Assembly (NCBI GenBank): GCA_949358305.1
Contig: OX442314.1
Coordinates: 32,860,001 to 32,924,000, forward strand
Direction: 5' to 3'
DNA from: Strigamia acuminata
Lineage: Eukaryota
Length of the DNA stretch: 64,000 nt
Shown here piece after piece: positions 37,977-64,000 of this stretch. Under the pieces are notes generated by a model that was given only the letters and a program-made list of their open reading frames with translations, did not search any database and was not told the DNA's origin. The position numbers were made by a program, and so were the translations under genes. The number at the start of each line of letters is the position of its first letter. Within the stretch, counting starts at the first letter, position 1.

Positions 37977-38607
37977 TGTGGTGATTCGGCATCACCTGAA
38001 GAAGTAATTAGCGGTGATTATTGTGTTACTAATACTCGCCACTAGAGCGCGCTAGAAATACCGACTAGACTGACTAGTCTCGTGTTTCTGCGAACCTGCA
38101 TAATCGGAAGGATTTGCATATGACGTCATTTCCGGTTAGTATATAACGCCGATACTTGACCGGAAACGACACTACAGTTACCACATTTCAGCAAGAGCAC
38201 CATTTACCTCACCTTTCAGGCCGTTTCACGGATTGATCGAGGACCGGTGCCCGCTGACCATCTCAACTGTACAACAGCCACATTTATTTAGCGTAGCCAA
38301 TCTACGCTAGAATAAATATTCGAACGATATTCGTTTAATTCGCACGAGAAAGCGAATTCTCGCGTGTTCATAATAACACGTGGAAATACCCTAGACAACA
38401 AACATAGACCACGCGTAGGACTAAACAATTGGATCCGCCATTGTTTAGCGGCAACTCGTATTCGCAGCCGAATCCGAGGACCAACACAGGAAACATCTTG
38501 ACTTATATTTGTATTAGTAAGCGTGTTTTAATAAAGCAGTATTTGAAATATATTGTATTCCCGAGTGTATTATTTATTATCTTTAACCACAAAGTCGAAT
38601 CACGACA
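37977..38607 (+). repeat. Gypsy-A 5' LTR
   Basis: TGTGGTGATTC...CACGACA. Contains ATTTGCAT (38112), TGACGTCA (38121), TATATAA (38140) and AATAAA (~38530). Confidence 0.96.
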
Positions 38608-38609
38608 CG

Positions 38610-38627
38610 TGGGGGCCTGTCCGGGAT
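38610..38627 (+). promoter_or_regulatory. Primer-binding site, tRNA-Pro-like
   Basis: TGGGGGCCTGTCCGGGAT differs at two positions from the tRNA-Pro PBS TGGGGGCTCGTCCGGGAT. Confidence 0.8.
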
Positions 38628-38699
38628 AGATTTGCTAACCTTAAGACAATACTTTAAATAATAACCGGGATCTTTCGATCGATCATTATATCGTAAGAA

Positions 38700-41546
38700 A
38701 TGACAAAAACTACCGCAGAAGATAGAAAAAGGCGTAACGACGAAAAGGATAGAAAAGAAGCCGAAGAAATCGAACGCCAAAAAGCGGAAGAAGCGAACCA
38801 CGTGGAACCAGAAGTCGAGACTAACTCGACTAAAGTTTCAACGGAATCACCAAGTGAAAGCCTTCCCCTTGCAAGACAACTTCCGTTTACGGGAGGCGAA
38901 TTCGAAGGATCAGGAAGCTCTCACGAAGAAAACGGACTAAATAAATCGTTCGAAAACCCTCGATTCGGATTGAAAAGCCCAAGACCTGTCGAAAAGGATC
39001 CCAGTGAAATGGATCTAATGACTCTTCTAAATAAAGCGGCAAACACAAGTGCCGCAATGATCAACGAGGCTGCCCGCGCAGACCAAGCAAGAACAGTCGC
39101 GTTAGAGAAGAAGAAAAACGAATTGATGGAAGATTTAGCCAGAGAGCATCGCGAGAAATTAGCTGCCATGGAACAGAGCTTGGCACAAGAACACCAAGCT
39201 AAACAAATGGCACTGGAGCGCGAGCTGGCTCGAGAATTGCTCGCGAAGCAGAAAATAATCGAACGAGAAATGGCAAAGGACTGCCAGATCCGGCCGCCAA
39301 GCAACGGGTTAAGCCAGCATTCGGAGCCAAACTCCGTACAGAGCTCCCCAGAACGGTCTCACACAGCTAAGGAGCTGGTAGCCAAAGCAATAGAAGTAAC
39401 TCGGGTAGCTTGCGCACACGGCATCGAGATCGACCAGGACAAGGATCCCTACGCAGAGCTAAGCCGAGTAATCGACCTAGTAAATCAGAGGACTGAAAAA
39501 CGATCGGCAGATAACACGGCCAGACGCGGAGAGAAACGACGTCGGGTCGGAGCAGATCGACAACAGTCCGAGACAGGCGGCGAAGCAACGTCAGACAGCG
39601 AAAGTATCGACTCTCAAGCATCTCACGGCAGTATCCGAGTCAACGGACTAGATAGCATCTTGAACGAATCGGACGAAGTCAAAGGAGAACTGTACGAGGC
39701 GTTTATACAAGATAGGAGGAATAATCAGGGCGCGCAATCATGGGCAATAAAAAACTCATTCGCAATGAAAACTGGCCAAACCAGTAATAACAACCCAGGC
39801 GACCCTAACGCAGAACTAATCAGATGTATAAATCAGAAGAATCAAATACGCAACGAAGTAGGTCAAAATAAACTGGCCATGCCGACGCTCGAGGAGATTA
39901 ACGCAGTTAAAAATCACCTCGAAAAGAAACACGCCGCCGAAGCGTATGCTGGGAGAGATTCCTACGTTTTTATCAAAAAAACGAACGAAGGCCTCACGGG
40001 GACCCGACTGGACGATCTGATACCGCCCGGAACAAAGTTGAGCCAAACCTCCGCTCCAGAGAAAGCGAACCCAGATAACTCAACCATAGCGCAAGACCTC
40101 ACGAATAACCCGAACACCGCGGGATCATCAGGGAAAACGTCGTTCCAACACAATCAGTTCGGACTGACGGGCAACGGTACGCATTACCCAAGCCTCCCTT
40201 CCGACAATCCACGATCATCACCGCTGCTTAGTGAGACTGACTCGCTAAGCAACCAACTACGGACGATGAGAGACGAACTCCTTCAGGCCATGGACCAAAA
40301 GCTTCAACAAAGCCGTGGCCAAGAGACCGAGGAGGACGATCGAAGCGAAGGATTGTTGAAACGTTACTCCGCAGACCGATGGCTGTATTCTCGCAAGGAT
40401 AACAACATCAAGTGGACGACCCTGAGACTAATTAAGTTCGACGGATCCTGGAACGCCGGCAACTTGTTTTTGGACGAAGTCGCCCTGACGATTAATCGCT
40501 TAGGAGCGGAACCCGACGAAATGGTTGCACGCGGAATACCAGAAATGCTGATCAACCGGGCCCGAAACTGGTACGCTGATGTCCAACCCCGAAACTGGGA
40601 AGATTTCGTCATAAAGTTCCACAATCAATATGGCGAGACGAGCCAAGAAATCCAGAAAAGAGTAAGCTCTATGAAGCAAGCTCCCGGGGAAACTCTGAGG
40701 GAATACGTACAACGAGCCGACAGCCTGTTCCGTGAAATGGACAAACCATTTGACCAACACGCTCAGAAAGCTCTCTTCGAACAAGGACTAAACGAAACCG
40801 CAACCAAAGTCCTACGAGAAATGAACGCTCCTAAGGGGGATAATTTCAAAGCCATCCTAGCTTTCGTCGAGAAGAAACACACCGAAGTAAATGCTCGGTA
40901 TAACGAAAATCTGACAAAAGAAGAGCGAGCTCTAGGAGTGGCCCGACAGCAACGAATACAGGAGCGCAGCATAGACTCCACTAAGCTGCTCCAATCGCGA
41001 AATTATCTAAACGGAAGTATAGAGCCACTCCCCTCAAAGAAAAACCAACAAGCTTCTAACCCTTTACCACCTCCGAGTAAGGCCTATCGCACGCAAACTA
41101 ACGCCGCCGAGGAAAAGTCGGAAGACGAAGTAAGCGAAGACTCTGAGCAATTCTCGGAAAGCGATGAGGCTGACGAAGGTATCAACGATGTGGTACACGC
41201 AAACATGGGGAAGGAACTGGCGCCCAGCTACCGACCTCAGATGAAGTCCAGAAAATCGGAACACCACAACCCGAAAACAGAGGCGACTTCCGAGAAGAAG
41301 GACTACCCCAAAAAACCTTTTGAGCGGGAGGGAAAGAAGAAAAGCCCTTGTAATTTCTGTAACGAAGACGGCCACTGGCGTCAGGCCTGCCCAAAACTGG
41401 CAAAGAAAAAAGCCGACGACAAGGCCGCAGAGCGTGAGGAGCTAGTGAAATTGCTCGCGAAGGAACAAGACAAAATCTTGAAGGAACTCACCGCCAAACT
41501 CGACAGTATGACAAAAAACTGGAACTCGCGGGCGGAACAAAAGTGA
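38700..41546 (+). CDS. gag: Gypsy-A Gag, 948 aa
   Basis: Capsid-like KFDGS..ARNWY..WEDFVIKF..KQAPGETLREY and CCHC knuckle CNFCNEDGHWRQAC. Confidence 0.92.
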   Translation: MTKTTAEDRKRRNDEKDRKEAEEIERQKAEEANHVEPEVETNSTKVSTESPSESLPLARQLPFTGGEFEGSGSSHEENGLNKSFENPRFGLKSPRPVEKDPSEMDLMTLLNKAANTSAAMINEAARADQARTVALEKKKNELMEDLAREHREKLAAMEQSLAQEHQAKQMALERELARELLAKQKIIEREMAKDCQIRPPSNGLSQHSEPNSVQSSPERSHTAKELVAKAIEVTRVACAHGIEIDQDKDPYAELSRVIDLVNQRTEKRSADNTARRGEKRRRVGADRQQSETGGEATSDSESIDSQASHGSIRVNGLDSILNESDEVKGELYEAFIQDRRNNQGAQSWAIKNSFAMKTGQTSNNNPGDPNAELIRCINQKNQIRNEVGQNKLAMPTLEEINAVKNHLEKKHAAEAYAGRDSYVFIKKTNEGLTGTRLDDLIPPGTKLSQTSAPEKANPDNSTIAQDLTNNPNTAGSSGKTSFQHNQFGLTGNGTHYPSLPSDNPRSSPLLSETDSLSNQLRTMRDELLQAMDQKLQQSRGQETEEDDRSEGLLKRYSADRWLYSRKDNNIKWTTLRLIKFDGSWNAGNLFLDEVALTINRLGAEPDEMVARGIPEMLINRARNWYADVQPRNWEDFVIKFHNQYGETSQEIQKRVSSMKQAPGETLREYVQRADSLFREMDKPFDQHAQKALFEQGLNETATKVLREMNAPKGDNFKAILAFVEKKHTEVNARYNENLTKEERALGVARQQRIQERSIDSTKLLQSRNYLNGSIEPLPSKKNQQASNPLPPPSKAYRTQTNAAEEKSEDEVSEDSEQFSESDEADEGINDVVHANMGKELAPSYRPQMKSRKSEHHNPKTEATSEKKDYPKKPFEREGKKKSPCNFCNEDGHWRQACPKLAKKKADDKAAEREELVKLLAKEQDKILKELTAKLDSMTKNWNSRAEQK

Positions 41547-41564
41547 TTCCACATCCGCTCGCGA
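41513..41564 (+). promoter_or_regulatory. -1 ribosomal frameshift signal (gag-pol)
   Basis: A AAA AAC in the gag frame, a 6-nt spacer, then an 11-bp stem (41526-36 / 41554-64). Pol lies in the -1 frame. Confidence 0.8.
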
Positions 41565-44500
41565 TAACTTCGAAAACGATGGACCTTACTCTGGTGGAAA
41601 AACAAATTAAAGAAATGGAAAAATTGTTGGAATTCTTCGAGGAAGCTGCCAACGAGGAAGTCACAACTCCAACCAAAAAACGGAAATTCGAAATTAGAGA
41701 CGAAGACGGTATAGCCAACGCTTTCATGACTTTGCCGCTTGACCAAGGGGCCAATCCTCTTAAAAAGCGAATACTTCGTTGCAACCTATCAACAGAAGCG
41801 AAGAGCGTACTGGCTAAAATACCAGTCTCTTTCGGCAAAAAGGTGTTAATGGGACTACTCGACTCGGGAGCGGATCAGTCGTTTATCTCCACCGACTTAT
41901 TCGAATCACTCGAAGAAAAAATACAGAAAAAATTACGGGGAATGAACGAGAACATTCGAGTTCTTACAGCAGCGGGAGAAGTTAGAGCAGTGGGGACGTT
42001 ATCAACCGATTTTGTATGGGAAGGAGGCACGATTAAGCATTTCTTCATCGTGTTACCAACCCGAGACACAATCCTGCTGATAGGAATGGATTTGATGGAA
42101 CGGATGAACATCCAGCCCAACCCAGTCACACGTTCGTGGAATTACATCGACAACCACGAGGACCCACGACTACCCATAATACCTCCGGAACTCCTAGACA
42201 AAGCTAAGGACGACGAGGAATGGGGAGGAGGCGAAATTAAGAAGTTCATCCAAGACTATAATTTTAAGTCGTTTAATACTATCCTCCAAGAGGAGAATTT
42301 AATACATAATCTGGCCATGGACGCCAATCTTGGAGAAGAACAAACGAAACTCCTCGAGGAAATGCTCAAGAAGCACTCGAAGAACTTAAATAAAGATCCA
42401 GGAAAGACTAGTTACGTAATGCACGAGATCGAATTGGTTACGGGAAAACCGGTGCGAGTACCTTTTAAAACTATGAATCCCCAAAAGAGACATATCGTAA
42501 GAACGATGTGCAACGAGTTGCTCGAAAAAGGGATCGTGTCGCACGCCATCGGAGAATATGGAATGAGGATTGTCCTCGTCATGCGACCAGGCTCCGAACC
42601 GCGCCTCTGCATCGATTATAGACCTTTAAACGCCATAACCGTCATCGACCCCATCCAAATGCCGTCAATAGAAGCGATTCTACGGGAGCTCGCCCCATTT
42701 AACTGGGTCACGACCATGGACTTGTCCAAGGGTTACTGGCAGGTTGAATTGCGGGAAGAGGATAAAGAGAAAACAGCTTTTTGGGCACCACAGGGTCGAC
42801 TGATGTTTAATGTAATGCCCTTCGGGTTAGTAAACGCACCCGCCACCTTTCAAAAACTAATAGAAAAAGTTCTCGGCGATGCCTTACACAAATACGCATG
42901 GGCTTACCTCGATGATATAGTCATAGTCTCCCAAACTTTTGAAGACCACCTGATACACGTGAATGACGTCATGGAGCGACTCACAAAAGCCGGTCTAAAC
43001 ATTCATCCAGGGAAAAGTAAATTTTGCCGCAAAGAATTGGCATTCCTGGGTTACACAGTCGGAACAGGTGGCCTATCCATCGACCCGAAAAAGACCCAGG
43101 CGATTAGCCAGTTCCCCGCCCCGGAAGATGTAAAAGGAGTCCAACGTTTCATGGGCATGGTGAATTTCTTCAATCGATTGCTCCCAAATTTGGCAGACGT
43201 CGCGGCACCCATCACAGATCTGTTACGCAACGATAAAGATTTCGAGTGGACTGACCACTGCGAAACATCGTTTAACAAGATAAAACAAATGCTGATCGAT
43301 GTAAAACGAATTCCCCTACCAGATCTTAATCGAGAATTCACTCTTCACACCGACGCCAGTCGAATTGGCCTAGGTGCTGCGTTGCTTCAAAAGCATGACA
43401 TCGACGGAGTAGTGTTAGAGGTCCCGACGATGTTCATCAGCCGGAAATTACAAGCAGCCGAAAAGAATTATAATGCGACAGAGTTAGAATGTCTAGCCGT
43501 CGTCTGGGCAATCCGAAAATTCAGACCATACCTGGAATTTACCAAGTTCAACGTACAAACTGACCACGAAGCACTAAAGTGGTTAATGGCGTTGAAGGAA
43601 CCGTCCGGAAGAATGGCTCGCTGGCAGCTAGAATTAATGGCTTGTGACTTAATCATTGAATACCGACCCGGAAAATTCAACGTCGTGGCAGACGCCCTCT
43701 CACGAGCCCCAGCTTCAGACCCCGAAGACGAGACCGACTGCGGAGAGGACGACTCACGCCTCTTCTACTGTCCGAACCCCGTCCGAAAATGGGAATTTAA
43801 AAAGCTAAACGAATTACCCAAGGAGAAACTCGAGTCAGGAGACCAAAATTATTACAATTATTGGCTCCGAGCATACCAGTCTGTCAAGGACGCTCACCCA
43901 AATTACGAGCTAACGATAGAACCTCGAATCTCCGACAAGTACGTTCGAGCATTCGTCGCCCACGTAAGCAAGGGGACGAATAGTAAGCCGCCCACCAGGG
44001 ACGAATTAATAGCCGCCCAGATGACAGACGACTTCTGTAAAACTTATCGAAACTTCATCACAGATAAAAAATTTCCCGACGAGAATTTCGACGAAATCCA
44101 ACGCGAAGAATTCGAAAGAGAAGCCTCCACGTACTTAATCGAGGATGGACTTCTACTAAAACACCACCCGAATTTCCGCGATGATCTGACGGAGACGGGA
44201 ACTTCGATGAAAGTCGTTATACCCAGGAGTCTGCTGACAAGGTTTCTGTGGATGGTCCACGGACACCCGCTCGCCGGACATTCTGGAGTGGCCAGAACGA
44301 TCTACCGAGCAAATCAACTTTATTTCTGGCCAAAAATGACCCGAGATATCGTTCGTTTTATTCATCACTGCCCCAGATGCCAAGCGTGCAAGCCGAGGAC
44401 GCCCAAGAGCTACGAGAGAATCTCACTTGGCCCTTTCGCACCCTTCGATTGCTGGAGCGTGGATTTAATGGGCCCAAAGCCCACGTCATCCAATAAAAAC

Positions 44501-45367
44501 AAATATATATTAGTAATCATGGATGTCGCGACTGGATGGCCCGAACTCTTTCCAATGGAGAGACCAACTAAGCAAAAAATCATTCGATGTTTGTACGAAG
44601 TGGCGCTTCATTTTGGATTCCCTCGAAAATTAATCTCCGATAATGGACCACAATTCGCGTCAAATTTGTACAAAGACTTCTGTAAAAAATTCGACATCGA
44701 GACATCATATACATCAACCTATAATCCACGGGCCAATCCCGTCGAAAGGTTAAATCGCGATATAAAATATGCACTAGCAATTTTCACCGATGTTCACTCC
44801 AGCTGGGACGAATATCTTCGTGAAATTGCCTTCAGCATCCGCACAACGATCTCAAGGAACCGCAAATTTTCTCCCGCGTTTCTAAACTTCGCTCGGGAAC
44901 TCAGAGTACCCTGGGACCCACGAATACCGGAGGAAATACTGGAAATTGATCCTGAGAAGCCTCATATTTATGTCGACAGACTGGAGCAAATAATTTCGGC
45001 CACTTATCAGCACATGATGTCACACATATTCGACATGAGAGATCGTATTAGCATTGCTGGAAAGGATCGGCCCTTCTGCAATTTTAAAGTCAATGACCTC
45101 GTCTGGAAAGACACACATATTCAGTCCAGCGCCGATAAGGGGGTCCACGCAGGCTTAGCAGACAAACGCGACGGCCCGTACGTCATACTCGAAGCCCACG
45201 GCGGAAACGCTTTCAAGCTAAAAAGATTGGCAGACAACGTTAATTTTAGATCGATCCACGCCCGAGAATTAACTCCATACTTACCTGAGTTTCCTCAAGA
45301 GGCTTGGACGGAATATCAGACGAAACCAGCGCAAAAATCCAATTATTCGCGACATGTTTTTAGATGA
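41513..45367 (+). CDS. pol: Gypsy-A Pol (PR-RT-RNaseH-IN), probably made by frameshift
   Basis: LLDSGA, MPFGLVNAPATFQ, YLDD, TDAS, NVVADALSR, HHCC, ISDNGPQF, VERLNR, GPY. Confidence 0.95.
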   Translation, partial: KKLELAGGTKVIPHPLAITSKTMDLTLVEKQIKEMEKLLEFFEEAANEEVTTPTKKRKFEIRDEDGIANAFMTLPLDQGANPLKKRILRCNLSTEAKSVLAKIPVSFGKKVLMGLLDSGADQSFISTDLFESLEEKIQKKLRGMNENIRVLTAAGEVRAVGTLSTDFVWEGGTIKHFFIVLPTRDTILLIGMDLMERMNIQPNPVTRSWNYIDNHEDPRLPIIPPELLDKAKDDEEWGGGEIKKFIQDYNFKSFNTILQEENLIHNLAMDANLGEEQTKLLEEMLKKHSKNLNKDPGKTSYVMHEIELVTGKPVRVPFKTMNPQKRHIVRTMCNELLEKGIVSHAIGEYGMRIVLVMRPGSEPRLCIDYRPLNAITVIDPIQMPSIEAILRELAPFNWVTTMDLSKGYWQVELREEDKEKTAFWAPQGRLMFNVMPFGLVNAPATFQKLIEKVLGDALHKYAWAYLDDIVIVSQTFEDHLIHVNDVMERLTKAGLNIHPGKSKFCRKELAFLGYTVGTGGLSIDPKKTQAISQFPAPEDVKGVQRFMGMVNFFNRLLPNLADVAAPITDLLRNDKDFEWTDHCETSFNKIKQMLIDVKRIPLPDLNREFTLHTDASRIGLGAALLQKHDIDGVVLEVPTMFISRKLQAAEKNYNATELECLAVVWAIRKFRPYLEFTKFNVQTDHEALKWLMALKEPSGRMARWQLELMACDLIIEYRPGKFNVVADALSRAPASDPEDETDCGEDDSRLFYCPNPVRKWEFKKLNELPKEKLESGDQNYYNYWLRAYQSVKDAHPNYELTIEPRISDKYVRAFVAHVSKGTNSKPPTRDELIAAQMTDDFCKTYRNFITDKKFPDENFDEIQREEFEREASTYLIEDGLLLKHHPNFRDDLTETGTSMKVVIPRSLLTRFLWMVHGHPLAGHSGVARTIYRANQLYFWPKMTRDIVRFIHHCPRCQACKPRTPKSYERISLGPFAPFDCWSVDLMGPKPTSSNKNKYILVIMDVATGWPELFPMERPTKQKIIRCLYEVALHFGFPRKLISDNGPQFASNLYKDFCKKFDIETSYTSTYNPRANPVERLNRDIKYALAIFTDVHSSWDEYLREIAFSIRTTISRNRKFSPAFLNFARELRVPWDPRIPEEILEIDPEKPHIYVDRLEQIISATYQHMMSHIFDMRDRISIAGKDRPFCNFKVNDLVWKDTHIQSSADKGVHAGLADKRDGPYVILEAHGGNAFKLKRLADNVNFRSIHARELTPYLPEFPQEAWTEYQTKPAQKSNYSRHVFR

Positions 45368-45811
45368 ACAAACTGGCCCAACCAATTTAGTTCAAGATGA
45401 GTCACACGAAGCGGCCGACGCCCCGGATGAGATTTCGGAGAGGGAGGAAATAGTCGAAGAATCTCCTAAAAAAGGAAAGCAATCAAACAAAAATAAGACT
45501 ACAAGAATCCTCAAACCTGATAAAATATACGGTATGCGTCGACACAAGCCAAACCCGTTCATAAAAGACGGGAAACTCGTCGGAAAACAAAAAGCGACTC
45601 CGGCCATTGTCTCAAACAATCGATAAAAACAACCACAGGGGGGACACCTGTTACGTCCCACAATGCGTCTTAATTGGCCAAACCAATCAAAGATGACATG
45701 AGACTAATAGTTAACCTCTAACCCGACCCACATTTATCACTGTCATCTCCGACTAAGCGACGATCACCTCGAGGCAGCCGTAAATCAAAGTATCAAATTA
45801 ATTTCCGAAAA

Positions 45812-46417
45812 ATGAAAAGAAATGATTGGAAGAAAGAAATTGAACGGGCCGTAAACAACGCTTCCGAGGATGACGATGAAGATCAAGTGGATTTGTTACA
45901 AATCATTGTAAACAACGAAGAGGGAAATTGGGACGAACCCAATGAACCCGATGTCCAACCCGACGTAAGTAAAAAAAAAAAAAAAAAAAATAGAAAAAAT
46001 TCAAGTATCGATAATCAAAAATACGAAATAAGTTCGTGGACTGACCACAAACGAAAAAATAATTAAATTCTCGTCGGGAGGTTTTTTGTCTGTGATGAAG
46101 TTTCGATGGGTTTTGCAGAGGTCGGAGGCGAGCGCTTCATCCAACATCAACGACTACTCCGAGCCCATCGCGCACCAACCAGCATCGCCGAGGCCCAAAG
46201 AATCCACCACACCAATCAAGGTATGTCGGCCTTCCTGCCACCAATTTGGGCCCACGAACGAACGGGAAATCCGCTGGAAGCGCCGGGACACCTACGTTTC
46301 TACTTGAATGAGAGCGAAGACCCCTCGGACTACTCTTCAAGACTGACCACATCTCCCAACCTGGACGAACCAAGTTCGGAAGATAAGCCGAGTTATGCCG
46401 ATAACTTGAAGAAATAA
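45812..46417 (+). CDS. Gypsy-A third gene (short form), unknown function; two same-frame blocks separated by one stop or an intron
   Basis: 45812-45964 is an acidic block ending NWDEPNEPDVQPD|GTAAGT. 46121-46417 encodes HQRLLRAHRAP...HERT...EDP. Both blocks are homologous to Gypsy-B ORF3. Confidence 0.6.
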
Positions 46418-46616
46418 GTAATTAGAAATCGTGACGAGAAGACTGTCTTCTCCAAACTAGGAAATTATTATTATTTGTTTGCGTATCAATTATTTAAGAA
46501 TGTAAAATATTTTATGCACCATTCATCATCATTTAAATAAAAAGATTATTTTATGATTAGATATTGTTCCTCCTTTTATTTAAGGGACCCCGATGATTTA
46601 TTCTCGGGGAGGGACG

Positions 46617-47247
46617 TGTGGTGATTCGGCATCACCTGAAGAAGTAATTAGCGGTGATTATTGTGTTACTAATACTCGCCACTAGAGCGCGCTAGAAATA
46701 CCGACTAGACTGACTAGTCTCGTGTTTCTGCGAACCTGCATAATCGGAAGGATTTGCATATGACGTCATTTCCGGTTAGTATATAACGCCGATACTTGAC
46801 CGGAAACGACACTACAGTTACCACATTTCAGCAAGAGCACCATTTACCTCACCTTTCAGGCCGTTTCACGGATTGATCGAGGACCGGTGCCCGCTGACCA
46901 TCTCAACTGTACAACAGCCACATTTATTTAGCGTAGCCAATCTACGCTAGAATAAATATTCGAACGATATTCGTTTAATTCGCACGAGAAAGCGAATTCT
47001 CGCGTGTTCATAATAACACGTGGAAATACCCTAGACAACAAACATAGACCACGCGTAGGACTAAACAATTGGATCCGCCATTGTTTAGCGGCAACTCGTA
47101 TTCGCAGCCGAATCCGAGGACCAACACAGGAAACATCTTGACTTATATTTGTATTAGTAAGCGTGTTTTAATAAAGCAGTATTTGAAATATATTGTATTC
47201 CCGAGTGTATTATTTATTATCTTTAACCACAAAGTCGAATCACGACA
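46617..47247 (+). repeat. Gypsy-A 3' LTR
   Basis: Matches 37977-38607. Confidence 0.96.
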
Positions 47248-52185: not shown

Positions 52186-52726
52186 TGTAGTTTTTGTTCT
52201 AATATGTTGGAGGCATAAAAATGGAGACGCGTGGTTGTTAGGTGAAAATATTAACAGTGATGGTTTTAATCTTAAACAGATGTTAAAAAGTGCGTGGAGC
52301 ACCAAATACAATTCGGGTCACTGATTGGTCAGTGTCAGTGACAGGTGCACAGGTGACAAAGACACCTGGCGGACAGGAATACAACATTCAATAAACAACA
52401 AAATATAAGTTAGTTTGCACCTCAAATTCATTATGTTTTTTAATCACCTAAATATTCTACACACAATATTCGTGAAAGTGGAAAATCATTAATTTTAATG
52501 GTGACATTAGCTGTACTTGTCAAACCCACTCAACTCTCGCAAGGCAGAAGTCGAAGGAAAAGACACGTTGAAGCCACGACTCACTAAATCGAAGTCCCGC
52601 CATACGTCGACGATCACTGTTCGTGTTATTATATCACGGCACGTAGACGTGATCACAAATCTTTTGTATATGAGGCAGTGTATTTCTTGTATCAGCAACA
52701 TTGATTAACACACAGCTAACTTTAAA

Positions 52727-54373: not shown

Positions 54374-55587
54374 TAAACCCTTTTGGTTTTCAGTTTATGA
54401 CATGCCCTTTCGCTTGTTTTCATACTCTCATGGTTTTGCTTCAGTTTTAAATAAGCAAATGATATTATTTTATATTATTTGCTATAATTGTTAAATTTCC
54501 TAGGCTTTGCCATCTCACAACTGTTGTTTAAGAAGAAGCATTAATTTCATCTCATTTTTGCAGTTTGCAATTTTATAATTTGAATAAAAATAAAAAAATT
54601 TAAAAAACTACATTTTACAAATATCTGTATGATGCCTAGATGCTACATACATAACACAAAAAAGATCCAAATTTTCATATTGTAAAATTCTGATAATTCT
54701 GCTCTAAATCTTGATCTCATCTTAAAAAACTCTCACGTGGCGTAAAAATGACATTCTATAAAGCAGCCCCTTGGGCTTCCCTGCAGCACAGCGACATAAG
54801 TATTTCTTATAAAATTTTACTAGCATTTTACTGGTGTTTGCATGAAAATAGAAAATTTTAAGACCTCAAAATAAAGAAATGTCACTCAAGCACCGCGCAA
54901 GTTGTATCTGTACAATGTTAAATTAATTTCCATGAAATAAACATATCCATCTGTGCAGATTATTTACGAATTTCAATCGGCATTCATCAGTTTTAAGCCT
55001 ACTATTAGATCCTAATAATTAATAAATAATGCTAACAATGCACTATACAAAATAATTCATTCCTCTCCTCCAACAATTCAAAATTGAAAACAGAAAAATC
55101 ATCAAAATAATAATAACTATAAAAATATGACTGCTGAATGTATTTTTTGTTTGTGTTGCCAAACAAAACATCCTGAAATCACTTCACATTTATTTTTGGG
55201 GCCAAAATTTAGAGTATTTTGGTCTAAAGTTAGATTTTTTGGCGATTTTTCAGTCCCATATAAGTGCCTATTGGTTCCGCCGGTCCGCACAGACCAAAAA
55301 TATAAGTTAATTTGGACCTCAAATTCGTTATGTCTTTTAATCACCGAAATATTCTACATACAATATTGATCGTGAAAGTGGAAAAACCACTCAACTCTCG
55401 CAAGGCAGAAGTCGAAGGAAAAGACACGTTGAAGCCACGACTCATAAAATCGAAGTCCCGCCATAAGTCGACAATCACTCTTCGTGTCATTATATCACGG
55501 CACATAGACTTGATCACAAATCTTATATATATGAGGCAGTGTATTTCTTGCATCAGCAACATTGATTAACACACAGCTAACTTTAAA

Positions 55588-56995
55588 ATGACAACAGCTA
55601 ATACGAATCAAGCCCGAAGAATTCTTCAAGTCAGTGCTTTTTTATACAATTCGCGAGAGGAAGGAAAACCGGACACGGTTATGCTACGGTGCAACGATGA
55701 CAAACGTGTACTTGCCGATAAACGGATATTGGTAGCTGGAAGTGATTATTTTCGTGCAATGTTCAACCACGGCAACATGGAGAACGAAACCAACATTGTA
55801 TCATTCCCTGACACATCCTCCGAAGCGATGGAAATCATAATTAAATTCCTCTACGCGCAAGATGTTCCGCTCCTTCCACAAATTCCGGACAATGTGTTGC
55901 GAGAAACCCTCATAGCCACTAACATGATGCTGTTGAACGAACTATTTGACAACTATTGGATCGAATATACAAATACGGTAAATGTAAACAACTTTGTCAA
56001 CATTTGGCAATTGGCAGAATTGTTCAACAAACCCGAAATTCTCGAGAAGATTCTACAGTTCGTTTCCCATCACACGAAACTCATCTCCGACTCTGACGAA
56101 CTTGGCAAAATCACAGCTGCGCAAATCGCAAGTGTATTTAAAATGCGAACAAGCCATAATTCTGGCGACTTTATTGCGTTCAAGTTAAATTGGATTATGA
56201 AGTCACCCGGGTTGAATATGACAGACAAGACTAGACGTATCTTGAATTATATATCTCGATCCCGTATAAAGAGTTTGACGGACTATTCGCTTTGCCAACT
56301 ATATTCATCTGACATTGTTACTAAATCAGCTGAAGTGCACAACGCAGTAATCAAAGTAGCTGCACCTAGATGGTTAACAAAGACGTCGAGGCGAGTTGAA
56401 ATATATGCGTTTGAGGTTACCGTTGAAGGGTGCATGCATCATACTTCTTATTTAAACCACGAAGCGTGGGAATATACAGAAAATTGTCCTCACAGCAGCG
56501 CAGCAATGAATTGGTATCCGGTTATTTCGGCAGAAAATGAAGTTATTTACTTTAACCGAACACCAATTGGAATTCAAGCAATTAGAGAGTCCAGGAATAA
56601 GATTTACGACCAACCCGAAGACGTTGCTACGGATAATAGTGATGTTAATGTTGTATGTGAAACCGAAAATCGTTCGGAGTTCTATTTTAGACGGACAAAT
56701 TCCAGTTATTCGGTGTTTGACATTTTCAGAATGGAATGGAATGTCACTAATTTTGATCATGTTATTTCAAATTACAAATGTTTGCTTTTAGCAAACGAAG
56801 AAAGGTTGTTATATTTTGATGTGGACGAATTGCACATAAAGATATTTAACCCGTATTCGGGAACTTGTGAAACGAAAGTTAAATTACCGGGCAATTGGCA
56901 AAGTGTCAGGTGTAAAAATCGGGTTGCAGTTTGTTGGACTGAAACGTTGATATTTGTTCAAAAAATTCCCTATAGCGCTCTGTTAATTTACAAGG
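55588..56995 (+). pseudogene. BTB-BACK-propeller-like gene interrupted by Gypsy-B
   Basis: Homology stops at ...SALLIYK. The LTR starts at 56996, and the ORF reads through LTR sequence to a stop at 57093. Confidence 0.88.
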
Positions 56996-58009
56996 TGTCG
57001 CGCCCCTACTTCGCTCTCGCTGACTCGTGGGTTGATTACTTAATTCGACTAACTCACTACCGCTTTGCTCAAGCGGTTTACCCAAAGAAATGATTACACA
57101 GATATAAAAGGTAAAATATAATATAGATTTATTCTGTGGGACAATGTACAGATATATCTTATATATATATATGAAAGGTAAGTAAAAGGTAAATCGGAAT
57201 GGGTGCTGGGAATGGAAAGGTAAAGGTAAGATGAAAGCTGGCTGGAATCGGCGAGGTCGTCTGTTGTCTCGTTCGTGTCCAAGATGGCGTCCTCGTTGTG
57301 GCAACGTGATGTCGTCTTGGGCCGGCGTGGCAATATGGCGTCCTCGACTCGTCTCTGGCTGGTCCTTCGGGCTCACGCTGGTCAGGCGCGAGTGAATGCT
57401 TAGTTAAAAGGCTTACTTCGGTCTGTTGTCTAGGTTTTTGTGTGGTGTCCGGCGATCACACAGCGGCGGACTCTTCTGGCTCCCGGCGGTCACACAGCGG
57501 CGGGAACACTCGTCGTTGTTTTACTGCAGTTTAGGCTTGTGCGACCGTTTGTCTGCACAACTCGCTAAACTGGAGTGGTTTTTACTATTTCTAGCTGGTG
57601 TGCTAAAATAGTGTGGTAATCTTATCTCGCAGGTTACTCTGCGGAGTTTGACACTGACCAAACGTACTCACGGTAAATTGTCCTTTGTCCTTGGTCAATC
57701 CCAGTATATTTACTTGGGCCTGATCTTGTAGGACGACGGGTTTACGTGTGTTTCTCGTTTGATGGTTGTGTTGGTTCTGCCCGCTCAGTGCAAGGCACAT
57801 TCCTTTGCACAAAGCGGGGTTGACAGGTGACCGGAATCACCCAATGGTGGGGTGGACGAGCCATCCCCACTCCCTCAGGGCAGACGCCTGTCCATTGACT
57901 AGATGTCAATGCACTGAGGGAAGGGAGACGCGCTTGCGGCTCCCCTTACACCCGAAACGAGGTCACGAGAGAAACTCTTCGTTGACCCCGGTCCAGTCGG
58001 GTCACCACA
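56996..58009 (-). repeat. Gypsy-B 3' LTR, 1014 bp
   Basis: Bounded by the PPT and by the break in BTB homology. TG...CA ends; begins TGTGGTGA like the Gypsy-A LTR. Confidence 0.85.
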
Positions 58010-58045
58010 CTTCCCCCTCCGAGCTCAGACCGTGGGGCTGAGCGA

Positions 58046-61000
58046 TCACTTCTTTTCTGGGGGACCCGACACTGAGTCCGTCACCTGGGCGTAACTCACT
58101 CCAGGGACAGGCGGTTGAGTGCCGGGTGGCGCGGGTAGATCGCCTACTAGCGCCGAGGACCGATCACGGGGGTCCTCATGCTCCGTAATGAAACATAATG
58201 CATGGCCGTCAACTGGCTCATGCGGGGCACGCGTCCTCTCGTGTAACCAAACGCTCGGGATGTAGGCGGAGAAGCCGGTGTTCGTATGCCGGATGGCATT
58301 GGCTTCCGCTGGCGTCACTGGCGCACGGTGGGCTCTCAGCAACCTCTGGTGGAAGATGAGGTCTTTAGTCTTCCGGATCTGGTTGTGAAGCCAGATGAAG
58401 ACCGATTTGCCTTTGTCCCGCTGTGCGAGGATAAACCTCCTGGTCGCCGTTGTCATCGAAAGATGGGGAAACTCGTCGATGATACGCCCATAATAGTCTG
58501 GTGGAGGCGGTGCCGGCTTCGGCTTCTGGGTGGCCGTGGGAATTACGGCTTGCGTCGTTGTCGCCGCTCGGGCCGGTGGGGTCCCGGGCGGTGTCGGCTT
58601 CGTTTGCTCGACGGACCTGACGGGTGGCGTTCGGCACAGCAAGCGCTTTGGTTTACCCGCCACTTCGAACAGGGCGGGTCCTTGCGGGGATATCTCCGCA
58701 GGCATCGGTGGCGGAATCGGAACTCCGCTCGTCGGCGAGATCACCATGTCTACATCCTCTGCCGGTTCTTCCGTCTGGACGGTCAAGGCGCGCAGTTGTT
58801 GGGTAGGCGCCGCTGTCCAGGTGGCGGAGGTGTAACGAAACGCCGTGCTTCGCAACTTGTACCCTTCAAATTCTGGGTTTACCACATCCCTGGTTAGCTC
58901 GTAGCGAGTCAACACAGGGTCGGGCAGAATGGAGCTCCACTCTGCGAGGAGTGCACGGGGAACCTGTACACCCTCTCTGTCCACGACAGACCATGCGGCC
59001 ATCGACTGACGCCCTTCTCCGAAGAGTGCTGGGGTTAGCAGCTGCATCATGACCTTGGTCAATGATAACTGTAGGCTGCGACGATTCACTGGATTCGATC
59101 GCTCTGAATCCGCAGTGAAGGCACGCGAGAGCTTACTCATCATCGCGGTTGCCCATTCGATAAAATATCGCTGTGTTTGATCCACACCTCGCAAGGCGGG
59201 CGCGGAGACTCTTGGGTCTTCCATCACGAAGCGAAACGCTGAGAGCTTGGAGATAGTCGGGTTGGCGGCTTCTCTCGCGAGTCGCGCTTCTTCGTCTCGC
59301 CTCTCGAAGAACAGGGCCGAGGAACCGGGTCGGGGTCGGCTCGGCCTGTAAATGCCGGTCAAATTGGCTCGACATTCCTGCATAATGCTCTGTCCAACGG
59401 GGAGAAGGACTGAGCGGTCGGTGGGTAAATCCGGCGGATCGCTCGAATTCAGCAACGACGGCGGCGGCAGGTTCGGAGGCGGCTGCGTCTTGGTCGGCAG
59501 CGTTGGCGTCGGCAGCGGTGGTGGTGGCTGCGTCGGCGGTGGTGGCGTCTCCGTCGTCTGCACCCCAGTCATGGCGACTTGGGGCGCCGGGAGATGTTGT
59601 TCGGAGCTTGAGGGCTGCACGATGGCGGTTGGCATGCCATCGGGTCGTGGTCGCGAATTTATGTAGTCTGCGAGCCACCTTGCCACCTCGTGTGGGGTCA
59701 CCATCCCGTCGGTGACAACACCCATCTTCCTGGCGTGTTTCATCGCGGGATCGAAACGTGTCAGTTTCGTCCGCTTCATCTGAGTCAGAATCTCGCGAAG
59801 GTCCCGCGTATCTGCCGCTGGGACGTTTCGCTCACCTGACTGGCTACCACTTCGTCGACCCGCTCTCTTGGAGATGTAGGCGGGTTCGGGGATGGGACGG
59901 CCCCGAGCTTCGCACCTCGCGAAGTATCGCTCCTTGCGATCTCTTTTCCGCTGCTCGCGATGAGTCAGCGGACGTCTAGAAGTGCTGGGACGAGAGACTC
60001 GCTCTTCGTCACCAGACATCCAAACCTCCTTGCACTCCTTACCGTCTTTAATCTGACGGTTTACGAAAATTCGCGGTCGGGAATACTGCGAAGGGTCACG
60101 CACCGTACTAGTGGATGGCCCAGCTTCGTTGCCTTCAGTCGTGTTTTGAGTGACACGCTGCTTCTTGGTTGTCACCGGGGAACGCGACTGGCTGTTCCCG
60201 GCGCCTTTGGAGCGCTTGCGCTTCCGCGGGTAGCTGCTCTTGGGCCCCAAAATCCCCAGGTGGTGGAGCTGCCACATCTCGGCTTGGGACGTTAAAATTC
60301 CCATCCGAGGTCTCCACTGGGGCGTACTCTCCCCCAATCGCAGTCTCTCAAACCACAGATGGATATCATCCGCGGTCATCCCCTCGTTTTGGAGGATGCG
60401 CTCGGCCACTGCCGCAGCGGTATCCACCAGCTGTTGCCTATACTGCTGATAGATGGCCTCACGGGCCTCTTCTGTCTCGGCTGCTCGCCACGCATGCAGC
60501 ACGTGTTCCTCCGCCGGGTTGCCAGTGTACTGACTTGACAATCCGGGGTGGAAAATTGGCGATTTCGGGTCATCGTCACGAGCTAACTCTGTGGCGATGC
60601 CTTCGCGCATCCCCTCCGGGAACGTGTCCAGGAGCGTGCAGTCTCGTACCCAACGTCGGGCGATGCATCGGGAATGTAGTATTCGCAGGCGCCAAGGGTC
60701 GGCGTCCTCGCCGAAACATCGTCGGTAAAATTCGGGCAGCGCGCCTCGAAATATCCCGCCACGAGCGATGCAAGCGGGGTCTAATGGTCCCCATGTTTTA
60801 CGTAATGCCATCTGGAAGGATGGAGAAATAAACAATTACTAAAAAGTTAATATTAAATACGTAGATAAATGGTTGGTTTCGAGGGACGTTGCCGATACGT
60901 GCAGCCGTCCGTCGAGACCGATTCCTGTCTATCGGTGCAAACGTAGGACGAATTGTCCCTCGTCGGATAGAAAAAAGAGAAGTCATCACGTAAAAATCTG

Positions 61001-61747
61001 TCTCATGTCCAAAACGCACAGCGAGACGGAATCGAGCCTTTAATCTGGATTCTTATCATCAGATTTTACTTCAAATTAATTCTAACGTTAATTAGGACAT
61101 TACTAATAATTAAATTAATAATTATCAGTCATTCGTAAAAAGAATTCGTCGGGTGTAAATTATTACTAAAATTGCACAATAAACGTGTTTGTCGAAATTT
61201 TATTAAATAAATAAACCTAATAAAGAATTATTCCGAAGTCGGACTTTGTCTAATTTTTTAAAAGAAGTTAAAGTCAAATTAAATTTATCTAACACATCGA
61301 AAAATTCATCGTACGAATGTTAAGTTGCATCAATTTGATGCGTCAAATTACTTGTGGAGAAAAATATTCTTTTACAGAATATTCTCCCCTTGTCATAAAA
61401 TTATTTATGGCTCGAGCCCATTGTCTCGCTCGTGACTCATGTCATGAGGAATTTTCGAGACGCGAGGCGACGTGAAGTCTGCGATCGCACCCCGAAAACA
61501 ACTTAACAAGGAAAAAATACGATCGTGTGAGCGATCGCGGTTAATAATTAATTATACGCTATTGTGAGTGCAAAGCACTCATGTCAGGTATTAGTCAAAC
61601 AAAATTTCTTCTTCAGCAGCACGGAACTAATTCTCATGTGCCGATGCCGACTTCTACCTGATCGGGTGGGACTTGGTTTACATCGTGGTCCCAGTTTGCC
61701 TCGTCCTCGTGCTCGATGGCAAGCACGTCGTTCTCTTCCTCGTCCAT
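58046..61747 (-). CDS. Gypsy-B third gene (non-env), predicted spliced: exon 1 61747-61658, exon 2 60811-58046, ~951 aa
   Basis: GCCATGG start, a 30-codon acidic exon, CAG|GTAGAA donor, and a pyrimidine-rich acceptor ...ttctccatccttccag|ATG in phase 0. The 921-codon exon 2 ends just before the PPT. Confidence 0.75.
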
Positions 61748-62236
61748 GGCGAGGAGCGCGCACAAAAAGCTCAATCACGATTGAAAAAGGATGATAAAAC
61801 TATCTCAAAAACTCGGTAAAAACTCGGTAAAAATGTTAAAAACGAGGATCACGCACGGACGCAGCGATCAGCTGTGAAAAGCGGAAGTCCGTGTGAACAC
61901 GAGGTAATCGCGATGGATTCTGGGTAATATACTCCAGAACCCGGGTGTTTGAGACTAGTGCGCACCTACCCGTGCGCATGTTACGCTACGGGTCTCCTTT
62001 GTTTTCACTCCCGTGCGCGATTGCTGCTACGGGGTCTTTTGCACGCGGTATTCGACCCGTGCCGATAATTTTGCGACGGGTCCCGCGTTTCCACGCCATC
62101 TCGTGACGCGAAGTCGACCGATATCCGCTTTGTTGGACTTAGCGAAATTTTCAGAGTCTCGGATTTTGATGGCTAGCGCTGCCGATCGGTCATTTTTTTT
62201 TTGTTTTTCAGCGTCGCCATCGACTCGTAACGTTTT

Positions 62237-64000
62237 CTACTCCTTTCCTACGACCTTTCCGTCTTTTATAAACGGATTACTTCTACGGGGCCGCAGGTGA
62301 TGAGTCGAGACAGGTACGACGTTTTTTGTTTTTAGTGTCTGTACCTCCTCATTATTGTTTTCTTTTTTATCCGTGTTTTTTATGTTTGTTTCAGGAGTTT
62401 CTCCTGTTTCCCCCCCGACCAAAATTGGATCCGGAACGGATTCAACTATCTCGTTTACCGGAGGTGAAGGGGCGTCGAAATACTCCTCGTTGTCACTTGG
62501 CGGTGCTTTTTCCGACTCGCCAGCGAACATATCGACGATTTGGCCGTCAGTTTTAGACTTGACTTGGCCTTTGGCCCACATTTCTTGCGGGAATTCCGGA
62601 ATGTACGGAGTTAACTCTCGTACTTGTATCGATTTATGCTCGGTATTGTCCTCGAGCTTACGTAATTTATACGCGTTACCGCCATGCTTGCCGATGATCA
62701 CATACGGACCATCTCTCTTGTCGGCCAAGTTGGCGGTGATTCCTCTCGCTGCATTTGAGAGGGTGTGTGCATCTTTCCACACCAAATCATTGATCTCGAA
62801 ATTCACGAATTTTCCACCGCTTTTATCTTGTAAAATGCGGTCGCGCATGTTAAAAATGTGCGCCATCATATGTTTGTATGTGCTCGAAATTGTTTGCTCC
62901 AATTTATACACATACTCATGTGGTTTCTCTGGGTCCACCACATTTACCGACTCTGCCACTCGTGGGTCCCAAGGCACTCGTAGCTCTCGGGCGAAGTTGA
63001 GGTAGGCCGGAGAAAAATCTCTCGTCCTCGAGACTGTTGTTCGTATGCTGAACGCGATCTCCCTCAAGTATTCATCCCACCTATTGTGGATGTCAGTGAA
63101 TATGCTTAGTGCATATTTAATGTCCCTGTTGAGTCGCTCAACGGGATTTGTTCTAGGATTGTAGGTCGAAGTATGTGACGCCACAATCCCGAATTTTTTA
63201 CAAAACTTACCCCAAATTTTCGAGATAAATTGGGGTCCGTTATCGGATATTATTTTACGTGGAAATCCGTAACGTAACGCCACGTCGTAGATACATTCAA
63301 CGATTTTCTCTGCTGAAGGTCTAGCGACGGCGTACAACTCGGGCCAACGAGTCGCCACGTCCATTATAACGATAATGTACGCATTTTTATTTCCCGTAAT
63401 GGGTTTTGGGCCCATCACATCGACACTTAAACAATCAAAAGGCGCGTAAGGCCCTAAGAAGATAGTTTCGAATGGTGATTTACTCCTCGGCTTGCACGCT
63501 TGACATCGCTGACATTGGTGGACAAAAAGAGCAATATCTTTTTTCATCCCTGTCCAGTGAAACAGCTGTGTAGCACGATAGAGTGTTCTGCTTACTCCCG
63601 CATGGCTCGCAAGCGGGTGCCCGTGTAACAACCACAGCACGCGACCGATTAAGGAAGCAGGTATTACTACCTTTACTGCGGTGTCCGATTCACTCAAGTC
63701 ATCTTGGTGATTTGGGTGATGTTTCACCAAAAGGCCGTCATCCAATAGGTAATCTATGGATTCGTGTGCGTAACGACGCTTCTGCCTTCTGGTTAAGTTG
63801 GGCGGATATTTTCCTGTCAGTACGAATCTAGCTCTGTCCTGACATTTCTTGTCTACTTTTTGTTGCACAATTATTTCTTCCCTTGTCGGGGGATTGCTTT
63901 GCATCTGCTTGCCGACATGAGCGTGGAAGGCGCTTAGAAGCGGGTCATTTATTCTCCGCTCTAGCTTAAATTCCTTCTTTGCATCTGGGTAATTGTCAGC
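62237..64000 (-). CDS. pol: Gypsy-B Pol C-terminal part (integrase and tail), open to the window edge
   Basis: HGHPLASHAG..CQRCQAC, ISDNGPQF, VERLNR, DGPY. Confidence 0.95.
   Translation of the reverse strand, partial: ADNYPDAKKEFKLERRINDPLLSAFHAHVGKQMQSNPPTREEIIVQQKVDKKCQDRARFVLTGKYPPNLTRRQKRRYAHESIDYLLDDGLLVKHHPNHQDDLSESDTAVKVVIPASLIGRVLWLLHGHPLASHAGVSRTLYRATQLFHWTGMKKDIALFVHQCQRCQACKPRSKSPFETIFLGPYAPFDCLSVDVMGPKPITGNKNAYIIVIMDVATRWPELYAVARPSAEKIVECIYDVALRYGFPRKIISDNGPQFISKIWGKFCKKFGIVASHTSTYNPRTNPVERLNRDIKYALSIFTDIHNRWDEYLREIAFSIRTTVSRTRDFSPAYLNFARELRVPWDPRVAESVNVVDPEKPHEYVYKLEQTISSTYKHMMAHIFNMRDRILQDKSGGKFVNFEINDLVWKDAHTLSNAARGITANLADKRDGPYVIIGKHGGNAYKLRKLEDNTEHKSIQVRELTPYIPEFPQEMWAKGQVKSKTDGQIVDMFAGESEKAPPSDNEEYFDAPSPPVNEIVESVPDPILVGGETGETPETNIKNTDKKENNNEEVQTLKTKNVVPVSTHHLRPRRSNPFIKDGKVVGKE

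Follow-up and report, generated by a model that had tools for sequence, protein, structure and literature searches.

Results

Gypsy-B and its third open reading frame

The window (the whole stretch of 64,000 nucleotides that was analyzed) contains the retrotransposon Gypsy-B on its reverse strand, from the 3' part of pol to the 3' LTR, with gag, RT and the 5' LTR lying beyond the window, and the sister element Gypsy-A on its forward strand (37977..47247). Gypsy-A has gag and pol ORFs and the characters of a Ty3/gypsy (Metaviridae) element, namely the full PR-RT-RH-IN order, LTRs (37977-38608 and 46617-47247, forward strand; identical to each other) and a target-site duplication of 4 bp. The Ty3/gypsy features of Gypsy-B within the window are the integrase, a polypurine tract (PPT; 58010..58020, reverse strand) and the 3' LTR (56996..58009, reverse strand; ~1014 bp, TG...CA), the far end of which was inferred at 56996 as the point where similarity to BTB paralogues restarts. 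The 3' part of Gypsy-B pol (62237..64000, reverse strand) is an ORF comprising the integrase and a tail, with Pfam Integrase_H2C2 and rve above cut-off; the integrase is 66% identical to that of Gypsy-A, and the 120 pol relatives listed are 30-46% identical.

Between the end of the pol frame (62237) and the PPT, i.e., in the env position, lies the third ORF (ORF3; 58046-60811, reverse strand). As the first-pass annotation had reported, it is a sense frame of 921 open codons, read from 60811 to a stop ending at 58046, and the coordinates of its neighbors agree with this placement. It is the sole open frame there, each of the other five containing 20-37 stops over 58046-60835; composition predicts ~29 stops across ORF3, and the chance of an open frame is P ~1e-13. 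Its GC content is 60%, versus 46% for pol. The predicted protein consists of ordered-looking blocks (aa 1-190, 466-690 and 773-890), a basic tract with NLS-like runs (aa 191-320), Pro-rich linkers (aa 401-465 and 691-772) and a His-rich conserved C-terminal block (58145..58360, reverse strand; aa 818-889), and also has an Arg-rich tract (aa 271-320) and three patterns that loosely resemble an NES. The motifs singled out earlier (RKRKR, KKQR and, at aa 770, PPDY) are all present, but PPxY occurs in 22% of 2000 composition shuffles of ORF3 and was rejected as a late domain, being at chance level, and a run of five basic residues occurs in 4%.

ORF3 had been described as having no signal peptide, transmembrane helix or Cys-rich ectodomain, and this description holds. 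The highest 19-residue Kyte-Doolittle mean is 1.07, with no hydrophobic segment; by hydropathy alone, there is no hydrophobic N-terminus from either ATG (exon 1 or ORF3), and the signal peptide and transmembrane anchor of an errantivirus-type env, which occupies the same position but is transmembrane (PMC3383448 and PMC13524379), are absent. The protein has nine scattered Cys, three N-x-S/T sites, 104 Pro and 96 Arg, and lacks a furin-type R-x-K/R-R site. No match to an env or fusion protein, including those of the baculovirus F and gB types, was found in Pfam (E up to 1; blocks, E up to 5) or among PDB sequences; comparisons by fold were uninformative on this point. The sORF2/FAST-like proteins, also third genes of invertebrate Ty3/gypsy elements, have 60-210 aa, a single transmembrane segment and an N-myristoylation motif (10.1101/2025.03.14.642691), unlike the 921-aa ORF3 with no transmembrane segment.

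Candidate splice sites

The AG at 60812 directly precedes the ORF3 ATG and ranks first among 263 AG sites, counted from the pol stop to the end of ORF3, by a simple custom pyrimidine score, in keeping with the strong acceptor noted there before. Also present, as had been proposed, is a candidate exon 1 (61658..61747, reverse strand) of 30 codons, with a Kozak-type start (GCCATGG type) and a phase-0 donor after 61658, separated from ORF3 by a candidate intron (60812..61657, reverse strand; 846 nt, 36% GC) that ends at this best-scoring acceptor. Because the donor is in phase 0 and the intron measures 846 nt, the two frames agree, and the predicted joint product has 951 aa. Exon 1 would contribute 12 acidic and no basic residues, and its frame is closed 10 codons 5' of its ATG. 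The donor is middling, matching 6 of 9 consensus positions, with 9 of 203 GT sites scoring above it. On these features the third gene of Gypsy-B is a candidate spliced gene.

Two findings are new relative to the first-pass annotation, one being the internal deletion of a recently inserted Gypsy-A, described below, and the other a second candidate acceptor 5' of exon 1 (61872..61895, reverse strand; AG end at 61872). This AG ranks 4 of 263, second best outside ORF3, and no ATG lies between it and 61747; its presence suggests that the ORF3 RNA is doubly spliced. Among the 15 joints listed of 16, from two runs of unspecified kind, none equals the predicted intron, an observation that carries no weight either way.

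Gypsy-A, a deleted sister element

Both ends of the third gene had been said to be conserved in Gypsy-A. This is correct for the C-terminal block, in which 72 aa align at 56% identity (tblastn restricted to the window, E 1.6e-16) with five of the seven His invariant, and to a lesser degree for exon 1; the whole middle of the gene, however, ~815 codons, is missing from Gypsy-A, where the remnant of the third ORF (46136..46420, forward strand) retains the C-terminal block only and is stop-free. The counterpart of exon 1 (45812..45964, forward strand) has 51 codons, 17 of them acidic, and a consensus donor at 45965. Its match to Gypsy-B exon 1 is weaker than that of the C-terminal block, being the best non-self match in the six frames of the window yet reached by 36 of 2000 shuffles; in the aligned sequences the donor falls within one codon of the corresponding position, and both peptides are acidic and have a common Trp motif. 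A further donor-like GTAAG lies at 38693, just 5' of the gag ATG. Since GTRAG sequences turn up at 1.2 per kb in Gypsy-A gag-pol, single donor matches are weak.

At the deletion, Gypsy-A carries a filler (46065..46124, forward strand) that is an inverted copy of its own pol sequence at 44029-44088. All seven differences between filler and source are A-to-G on the transcript strand, each after U or A. From the loss of ~815 codons together with this filler, it is likely that the deleted form of Gypsy-A retrotransposed and that the third gene is dispensable in cis; the element is internally deleted yet recently inserted.

Constraint on the protein sequence

In the C-terminal block, Gypsy-A and Gypsy-B are identical at 0.62, 0.66 and 0.27 of first, second and third codon positions (pS 0.89, pN 0.35); the integrase, used as control, gives 0.72, 0.80 and 0.39 (pS 0.79, pN 0.23), and third positions are saturated in both. 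This codon-position comparison shows protein-level constraint on the C-terminal block. Among other copies, the 12 indels listed of 45 fall in the LTR (eight) and the intron (four), with none in ORF3 or pol, although low-depth deletions within ORF3 exist among those copies. Of the 40 substitutions listed from 414, three of five in ORF3 are non-synonymous, as are 8 of 20 in pol. One diverged contig matches ORF3 at aa 294-364, 497-541 and 591-641 with ~80% identity; over 1044 nt the two differ in length by a net 12 nt. The codon-position conservation, the placing of the listed indels outside ORF3 and the absence of env features together sustain the earlier proposal of a selected non-env third gene.

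Searches for relatives and folds

No usable match was obtained in word searches with the whole protein (proteins of lengths 506-1612) or the C-terminal block (lengths 30-505), in Atlas searches with aa 765-900 and aa 1-195, or with ORF3 against viral contigs, metagenome contigs, PHROGs, NCBIfam and PDB sequences. A HMMER profile of the C-terminal block run against 1.84 billion representatives gave two matches, both tandem-repeat singletons, which were discarded; derivation of the gene from gag was rejected, there being no tblastn match to Gypsy-A gag, and an ionotropic-receptor reading of 27854-28348, elsewhere in the window, had no Pfam support. Structure prediction, which had been called for earlier, was of limited help: AF2 gave poor models (mean pLDDT 41 and 39), one of which, from a single sequence, was all-helical and mostly of low confidence, and Foldseek against viral structures gave no match at E up to 0.001. 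VIA-align returned a generic helical hairpin alone (best Z 7.4, rmsd 2.7, 57 residues). A literature search, supplements excepted, found no description of the Gypsy-B third protein; it is possible that the gene is already annotated in Repbase, Dfam or GyDB.

Discussion

A proposed trans-acting nuclear regulator

The third gene is best read as a genuine accessory gene, an orphan whose product is most likely a trans-acting nuclear regulator, a reading drawn from sequence features. The particular version that we favor, tentatively, is an intact, constrained non-env gene expressed from a doubly spliced subgenomic RNA, whose product would be a nuclear factor that acts in trans to raise or protect LTR transcription. 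A leader donor would be joined to the acceptor at 61872; exon 1 would then supply the ATG together with a peptide of activation-domain type, acidic and bearing Trp and Leu, and a second splice (61658 to 60811) would add the body of 921 aa. Nuclear import may be directed by basic runs at aa 195-219, nucleic acid may be contacted by the Arg-rich tract and by the His-rich block, perhaps with metal, and the nuclear product would act on the LTR of the element so that transcription is raised or protected. Complex retroviruses work in this manner through foamy virus Tas (PMC7828637) or through Tax, to neither of which was homology detected. If diffusible, such a product would allow intact copies to help deleted ones such as Gypsy-A.

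This reading is consistent with the open frame against the stops predicted, the ranks of the two acceptors, the GTAAG donor-like sites of Gypsy-A (one before gag, one after the exon-1 counterpart), the acidic exon-1 peptides with their common Trp motif, the codon-position constraint, the lack of a hydrophobic segment, the sparing of ORF3 by the listed indels, the three blocks kept in the diverged contig, and the identical LTRs and A-to-G-only signature of the deleted Gypsy-A. Against it, DNA binding or activation is not linked to any of the blocks by a homologue or fold, the NLS-like run exceeds chance just modestly, the exon-1 donor is middling, and both the non-synonymous share of the listed ORF3 differences and the low-depth ORF3 deletions count the other way; movement of Gypsy-A without the gene is also compatible with a dispensable gene. 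The fuller picture appears somewhat doubtful: a "complex" invertebrate retrotransposon with a doubly spliced Tax/Tas-style RNA and a ~950-aa nuclear transactivator that has domains of new families, including a His-rich nucleic-acid- or metal-binding one, and that is supplied in trans to deleted copies that still move.

Alternative functions

It is unlikely that the protein is instead an export factor of the Rev or CERV kind, which would be produced from fully spliced RNA and would bind the unspliced genomic RNA inside the nucleus so that it can leave. Where splice sites are strong, an element still has to export its unspliced RNA, and the Arg-rich tract and NES-like patterns would suit this role, although the latter are loose and the acidic first exon would be superfluous for export. 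Gypsy-B RNA folds better than shuffles (z -3.7 in the spacer; mean z ~-2 in pol, intron and ORF3, versus ~0 for copia, BTB and hAT), but one intergenic control also reached z -1.3, and a discrete RRE-like element was rejected, since the structure is spread over the element and has no Rfam match. The precedent is CERV of C. elegans Cer1 (PMC10309623), a spliced nuclear regulator and orphan of 517 aa in which flexible linkers connect three folded domains; it acts on RNA export rather than transcription and to that extent weighs against the transactivator reading. CERV and the Gypsy-B protein are both large orphans of animal Ty3/gypsy elements with an NLS-like motif and folded-looking blocks joined by linkers; CERV, however, comprises five exons, has exons and reading frame in common with gag, contains a Cys loop and is established by experiment, whereas the Gypsy-B gene is a candidate that sits 3' of pol, would start in an ATG exon of its own, has a His-rich block and would encode ~951 aa. 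No similarity to CERV emerged from the general searches with the Gypsy-B protein (word search and C-terminal-block profile).

Rather improbable is an anti-silencing factor (piRNA, siRNA, chromatin or RNA editing) that would bind a host factor, with the exon-1 peptide as docking motif. A large, mostly disordered orphan (as modeled) with short motifs would fit, as would a gene dispensable in cis, and the A-to-G signature of Gypsy-A suggests that the host edits double-stranded RNA of this lineage; no similarity to suppressor families was found in Pfam, PHROGs or NCBIfam, however, and the C-terminal block is nearly as conserved as the integrase, not fast-evolving.

We also give little credence to a captured enzyme or particle-associated cytoplasmic protein that would lack a membrane anchor yet help particles to be released or taken up, such as a decayed GDSL esterase of the kind in rotifer ORF3s or a PPxY budding helper. 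The env position, the PPDY motif and the GC contrast with pol, which suggests capture, speak for it. The bdelloid rotifer LTR elements Juno and Vesta, like Gypsy-B, have a sense non-env ORF3 in the env position, but theirs are recognizable GDSL esterases or DEDDy exonucleases with catalytic residues intact (PMC5408684), whereas Gypsy-B offers a sub-threshold GDSL hint alone: a Pfam Lipase_GDSL_2 match at aa 76-152 with E 0.083 and 13.8 bits against a cut-off of 32.9, spanning the last 77 of 178 profile positions. This hint finds no echo in the all-helical model, in the Atlas searches or in the PDB, where none of four sequence matches is an SGNH entry, and no DEDDy exonuclease or RNase D-like match to ORF3 was found in Pfam, NCBIfam or PDB; PPxY, as noted, is frequent in shuffles.

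That ORF3 is a non-functional passenger, kept open through recent capture, high GC or RNA-structure constraint, is very unlikely: Gypsy-A moved despite losing most of the gene, homologues were not found elsewhere and RNA structure is pervasive in Gypsy-B, but first and second codon positions are conserved while third positions are saturated, one frame of six is open, and the listed indels spare ORF3. A highly diverged envelope or fusogen, for which the env-like site between pol and the PPT and the candidate spliced start might argue, is extremely improbable and already largely refuted by the hydropathy, Cys, N-x-S/T, furin-site, Pro and Arg data and the lack of env-family matches in Pfam.

Relation to known systems

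Regulatory accessory genes define the complex retroviruses, whose regulators (foamy virus Tas, HTLV Tax/Rex, HIV Tat/Rev) act in trans and are encoded near the 3' LTR, in Tax/Rex by a short ATG-bearing exon and a large last exon. By analogy, the Gypsy-B gene, which adjoins the 3' LTR and would likewise combine a short ATG exon with a large last exon, is proposed to act in trans; its predicted product is several times larger than these regulators. In contrast to them, and with no sequence or fold similarity to them found, the gene belongs to a Ty3/gypsy element with no env in the part within the window.

The first-pass annotation had taken the membrane env of errantiviruses as the norm for third ORFs. 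ORF3 does depart from that norm, having no env features, but the literature already describes both third ORFs that are not env and an animal Ty3/gypsy element with a spliced nuclear regulator (PMC7264820, PMC5408684 and PMC10309623), so the novelty is lower. Plant elements can carry further ORFs 3' of pol, before the 3' LTR, which are family-wide, some nuclear, and proposed regulators; aORF-3S, aORF-3R and Grande GENE23 resemble the Gypsy-B gene in being orphan ORFs after pol (PMC7264820). The nuclear plant examples are antisense with their own promoter, and those in sense orientation resemble env and have transmembrane segments (PMC7264820), whereas Gypsy-B ORF3, in a probable animal host, is a sense ORF with a predicted soluble product and is probably spliced twice. 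CERV is the sole tested nuclear example among animal Ty3/gypsy elements found in the literature search. If the regulator reading is true, Gypsy-B would provide a second, unrelated large spliced regulator, here in the env position, and retrotransposons would have evolved the strategy repeatedly; the study of trans-action would also gain a natural pair of intact and deleted elements, along with as many as three uncharacterised protein blocks. The A-to-G filler of Gypsy-A may itself be a relic of RNA editing by the host that reverse transcription made permanent.

The third ORF of Gypsy-B and its candidate splice sites

Judged from its sequence, the third gene of the Ty3/gypsy LTR retrotransposon Gypsy-B (minus strand, 3' part at 56996-64000) is real, constrained and non-envelope. 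The frame of 921 codons (ORF3; 60811-58046, minus strand) lies between the end of the pol frame (62237) and the PPT (58020-58010), which is followed by the 3' LTR from 58009; ~29 stops are expected in this stretch from its composition, and each of the other five frames has 20-37. The ORF3 ATG abuts an acceptor that ranks first among 263 AG sites by a simple pyrimidine score of our own, and a candidate intron (846 nt, 36% GC, minus strand) separates it from a candidate 30-codon exon 1 (61747-61658, minus strand), whose start is of Kozak type and whose donor is in phase 0. Re-checking of ORF, acceptor, exon and intron bore out all the coordinates of the first-pass annotation and confirmed the strong acceptor that it had placed directly before the ATG. 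The exon-1 donor is middling (6/9 consensus positions; outscored by 9 of 203 GT sites).

Another good acceptor (61872; rank 4/263) lies 124 nt upstream of the exon-1 ATG with no intervening ATG, and the exon-1 reading frame is closed upstream of the exon. The Gypsy-B leader is beyond the window; in the sister element Gypsy-A (plus strand, 37977-47247) a donor-like GTAAG occurs at 38693, immediately 5' of the gag ATG, which is weak on its own, as such matches recur 1.2 times per kb in Gypsy-A gag-pol. The layout of Gypsy-B suggests that the third gene is expressed from a doubly spliced subgenomic RNA. Alternatively, an internal promoter may drive it, or a single splice to 60811 may be followed by translation from the second ATG.

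Features and relatives of the ORF3 protein

The earlier claim that the product is not an envelope holds. Whereas env (PMC3383448, PMC13524379) and sORF2 (10.1101/2025.03.14.642691) are membrane proteins, the highest 19-residue hydropathy in the ORF3 protein is 1.07; it has 9 Cys, 3 N-x-S/T sites, 104 Pro and 96 Arg, a search for a furin-type site found none, and sequence searches of Pfam, PHROGs, NCBIfam and PDB gave nothing, envelope families included, at or close to threshold, so that a diverged env is scarcely credible. By composition, ordered-looking blocks (aa 1-190, 466-690 and 773-890) alternate with a basic tract (aa 191-320) and Pro-rich linkers. As to the motifs proposed at first pass, the NLS-like run of five basic residues is modestly rare (found in 4% of shuffles), and the PPxY is at chance level (22%).

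Non-envelope third genes are already known. CERV is a 517-aa spliced nuclear protein required for export of Cer1 genomic RNA (PMC10309623), and plant elements carry orphan ORFs downstream of pol, some of them nuclear (PMC7264820). In complex retroviruses, Tas and the internal promoter are named in PMC7828637. Rotifer LTR elements have ORF3s of GDSL and DEDDy type (PMC5408684); because GDSL esterases occur among them, the best Pfam hint for the Gypsy-B protein, Lipase_GDSL_2, is of interest, but it is well below cut-off (E 0.083) and finds no support in the PDB sequence or Atlas searches. To such genes Gypsy-B probably adds double splicing, as far as its splice sites indicate, and its interest lies in this and in a sister element that is deleted yet recently inserted.

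Word searches of protein sequences with the whole ORF3 protein and with its His-rich C-terminal block (C-block; aa 818-889, 58145-58360) found no relative, scans of viral and metagenome contigs were empty, and an Atlas search with two blocks (aa 765-900 and 1-195) gave no usable match. An HMMER profile of the C-block matched two of 1.84 billion proteins, both tandem-repeat singletons, which were discarded. The quality of the predicted structures was too low to infer a fold, and searches of published articles found no description of the third protein. None of the matches listed for Gypsy-A pol exceeds 46% identity; those with names come mainly from arachnids and insects, plus a few from plants and one from a choanoflagellate. 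The lineage is therefore poorly sampled, the lack of relatives says little for novelty, and the host is no more than probably an invertebrate.

Constraint on the third gene

The C-blocks of Gypsy-A and Gypsy-B are 56% identical, with 5 of the 7 Gypsy-B His invariant. Identity at the three codon positions is 0.62/0.66/0.27 (pS 0.89, pN 0.35), a pattern close to that of integrase in the same two elements (0.72/0.80/0.39; pS 0.79, pN 0.23); this protein-level constraint upholds the proposal that the gene is selected. For the exon-1 peptide, the best non-self match within the window is at Gypsy-A 45812-45964, followed by a consensus donor within one codon of the corresponding place, and 36 of 2000 shuffles reach an equal score. 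Conservation of both ends in Gypsy-A, as first asserted, is thus well founded for the C-terminus and weaker for exon 1.

Other copies were compared over 55500-64000 in two public runs of unrecorded kind, from the same study and maybe the source of the window itself. Matching contigs (7016 and 2142) covered 30/30 bins, as expected of a multi-copy family. Twelve of the 45 indels were listed: the LTR has 8 of these, the intron the other 4, and ORF3 and pol none. One diverged contig is ~80% identical across three ORF3 blocks with a net length difference of 12 nt over 1044 nt, a multiple of three that has a one-in-three chance. Counting against constraint are the substitutions (40 of 414 listed: 3 non-synonymous and 2 synonymous in ORF3, 8 and 12 in pol) and low-depth deletions inside ORF3.

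The deleted sister element Gypsy-A

The two LTRs of Gypsy-A are identical and its target-site duplication is 4 bp long; it therefore inserted recently. In place of the third gene it has only the exon-1 counterpart, ~100 nt of intron, an inverted 60-nt pol copy (46065-46124; source 44029-44088) and the last 95 ORF codons. This filler and pol differ at 7 sites, each an A-to-G change on the transcript strand; the changes affect 7 of the 10 A preceded by U/A and none of the 6 preceded by G/C (hypergeometric p ~0.01, hand-calculated), which matches the neighbour preference of ADAR for A after U/A. ADAR-type editing of a long-range hairpin, made permanent by reverse transcription, would account for the pattern. 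On this reading, the deleted copy passed at least one RNA round and did not need the full third gene in cis, so that the gene would be either trans-acting or dispensable for one round.

Just ahead of the C-terminal remnant, at 46119-46133, the two in-frame AG sites are weak, the strongest AG being in another frame, and a short spliced product of ~150 aa is therefore unlikely. The Gypsy-A pol tail resumes in another frame (45368-45630) past a stop at 45367, and its final motif matches the Gypsy-B pol end; the break is either a frameshift or an assembly error.

Possible function

Our tentative preference, in which we infer every functional step, is that the product acts in the nucleus, in trans, to regulate the element's own transcription. 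The exon-1 peptide, acidic at 12/30 residues in Gypsy-B and 17/51 in Gypsy-A and containing Trp and Leu, would act as an activation-domain-type segment, a make-up typical of such domains, and the basic runs would serve nuclear import. This reading is favoured by the conserved acidic peptide, the import-like basic runs, the Arg-rich tract, the conservation of the His-rich block and the probable lack of need for the gene in cis. That the protein is specifically a transactivator with new folds is somewhat more doubtful.

A CERV-like RNA export factor is a close rival, though in itself unlikely: Gypsy-B RNA is structured throughout, but no discrete RNA element stands out in it. A counter-silencing protein and a captured enzyme or particle protein are both improbable, and to the same degree; a passenger ORF is very improbable.

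RNA folding and genomic surroundings

Over most of its length (56996-64000) Gypsy-B RNA is more stable than dinucleotide shuffles (mean z ~-2); values near 0 were obtained for copia, hAT and the BTB genes, an intermediate one for Gypsy-A, and -1.3 for one intergenic control. Gypsy-B lies within the 3' portion of the coding sequence of a BTB/BACK paralogue (55570-57093), whose frame runs on into the LTR. This belongs to an expanded BTB-family cluster with long uninterrupted ORFs (also 12319-13395, 35529-37334 and 52709-54373) within segmental duplications, with repeat units of ~11-12 kb across 1-33 kb. An intact Ty1/copia polyprotein ORF of 1368 codons (47964-52070) adjoins Gypsy-A, a protein kinase gene (9301-10312) occupies two frames that overlap, and a hAT transposase lies at 19420-22847 with a possible zinc-finger exon upstream.
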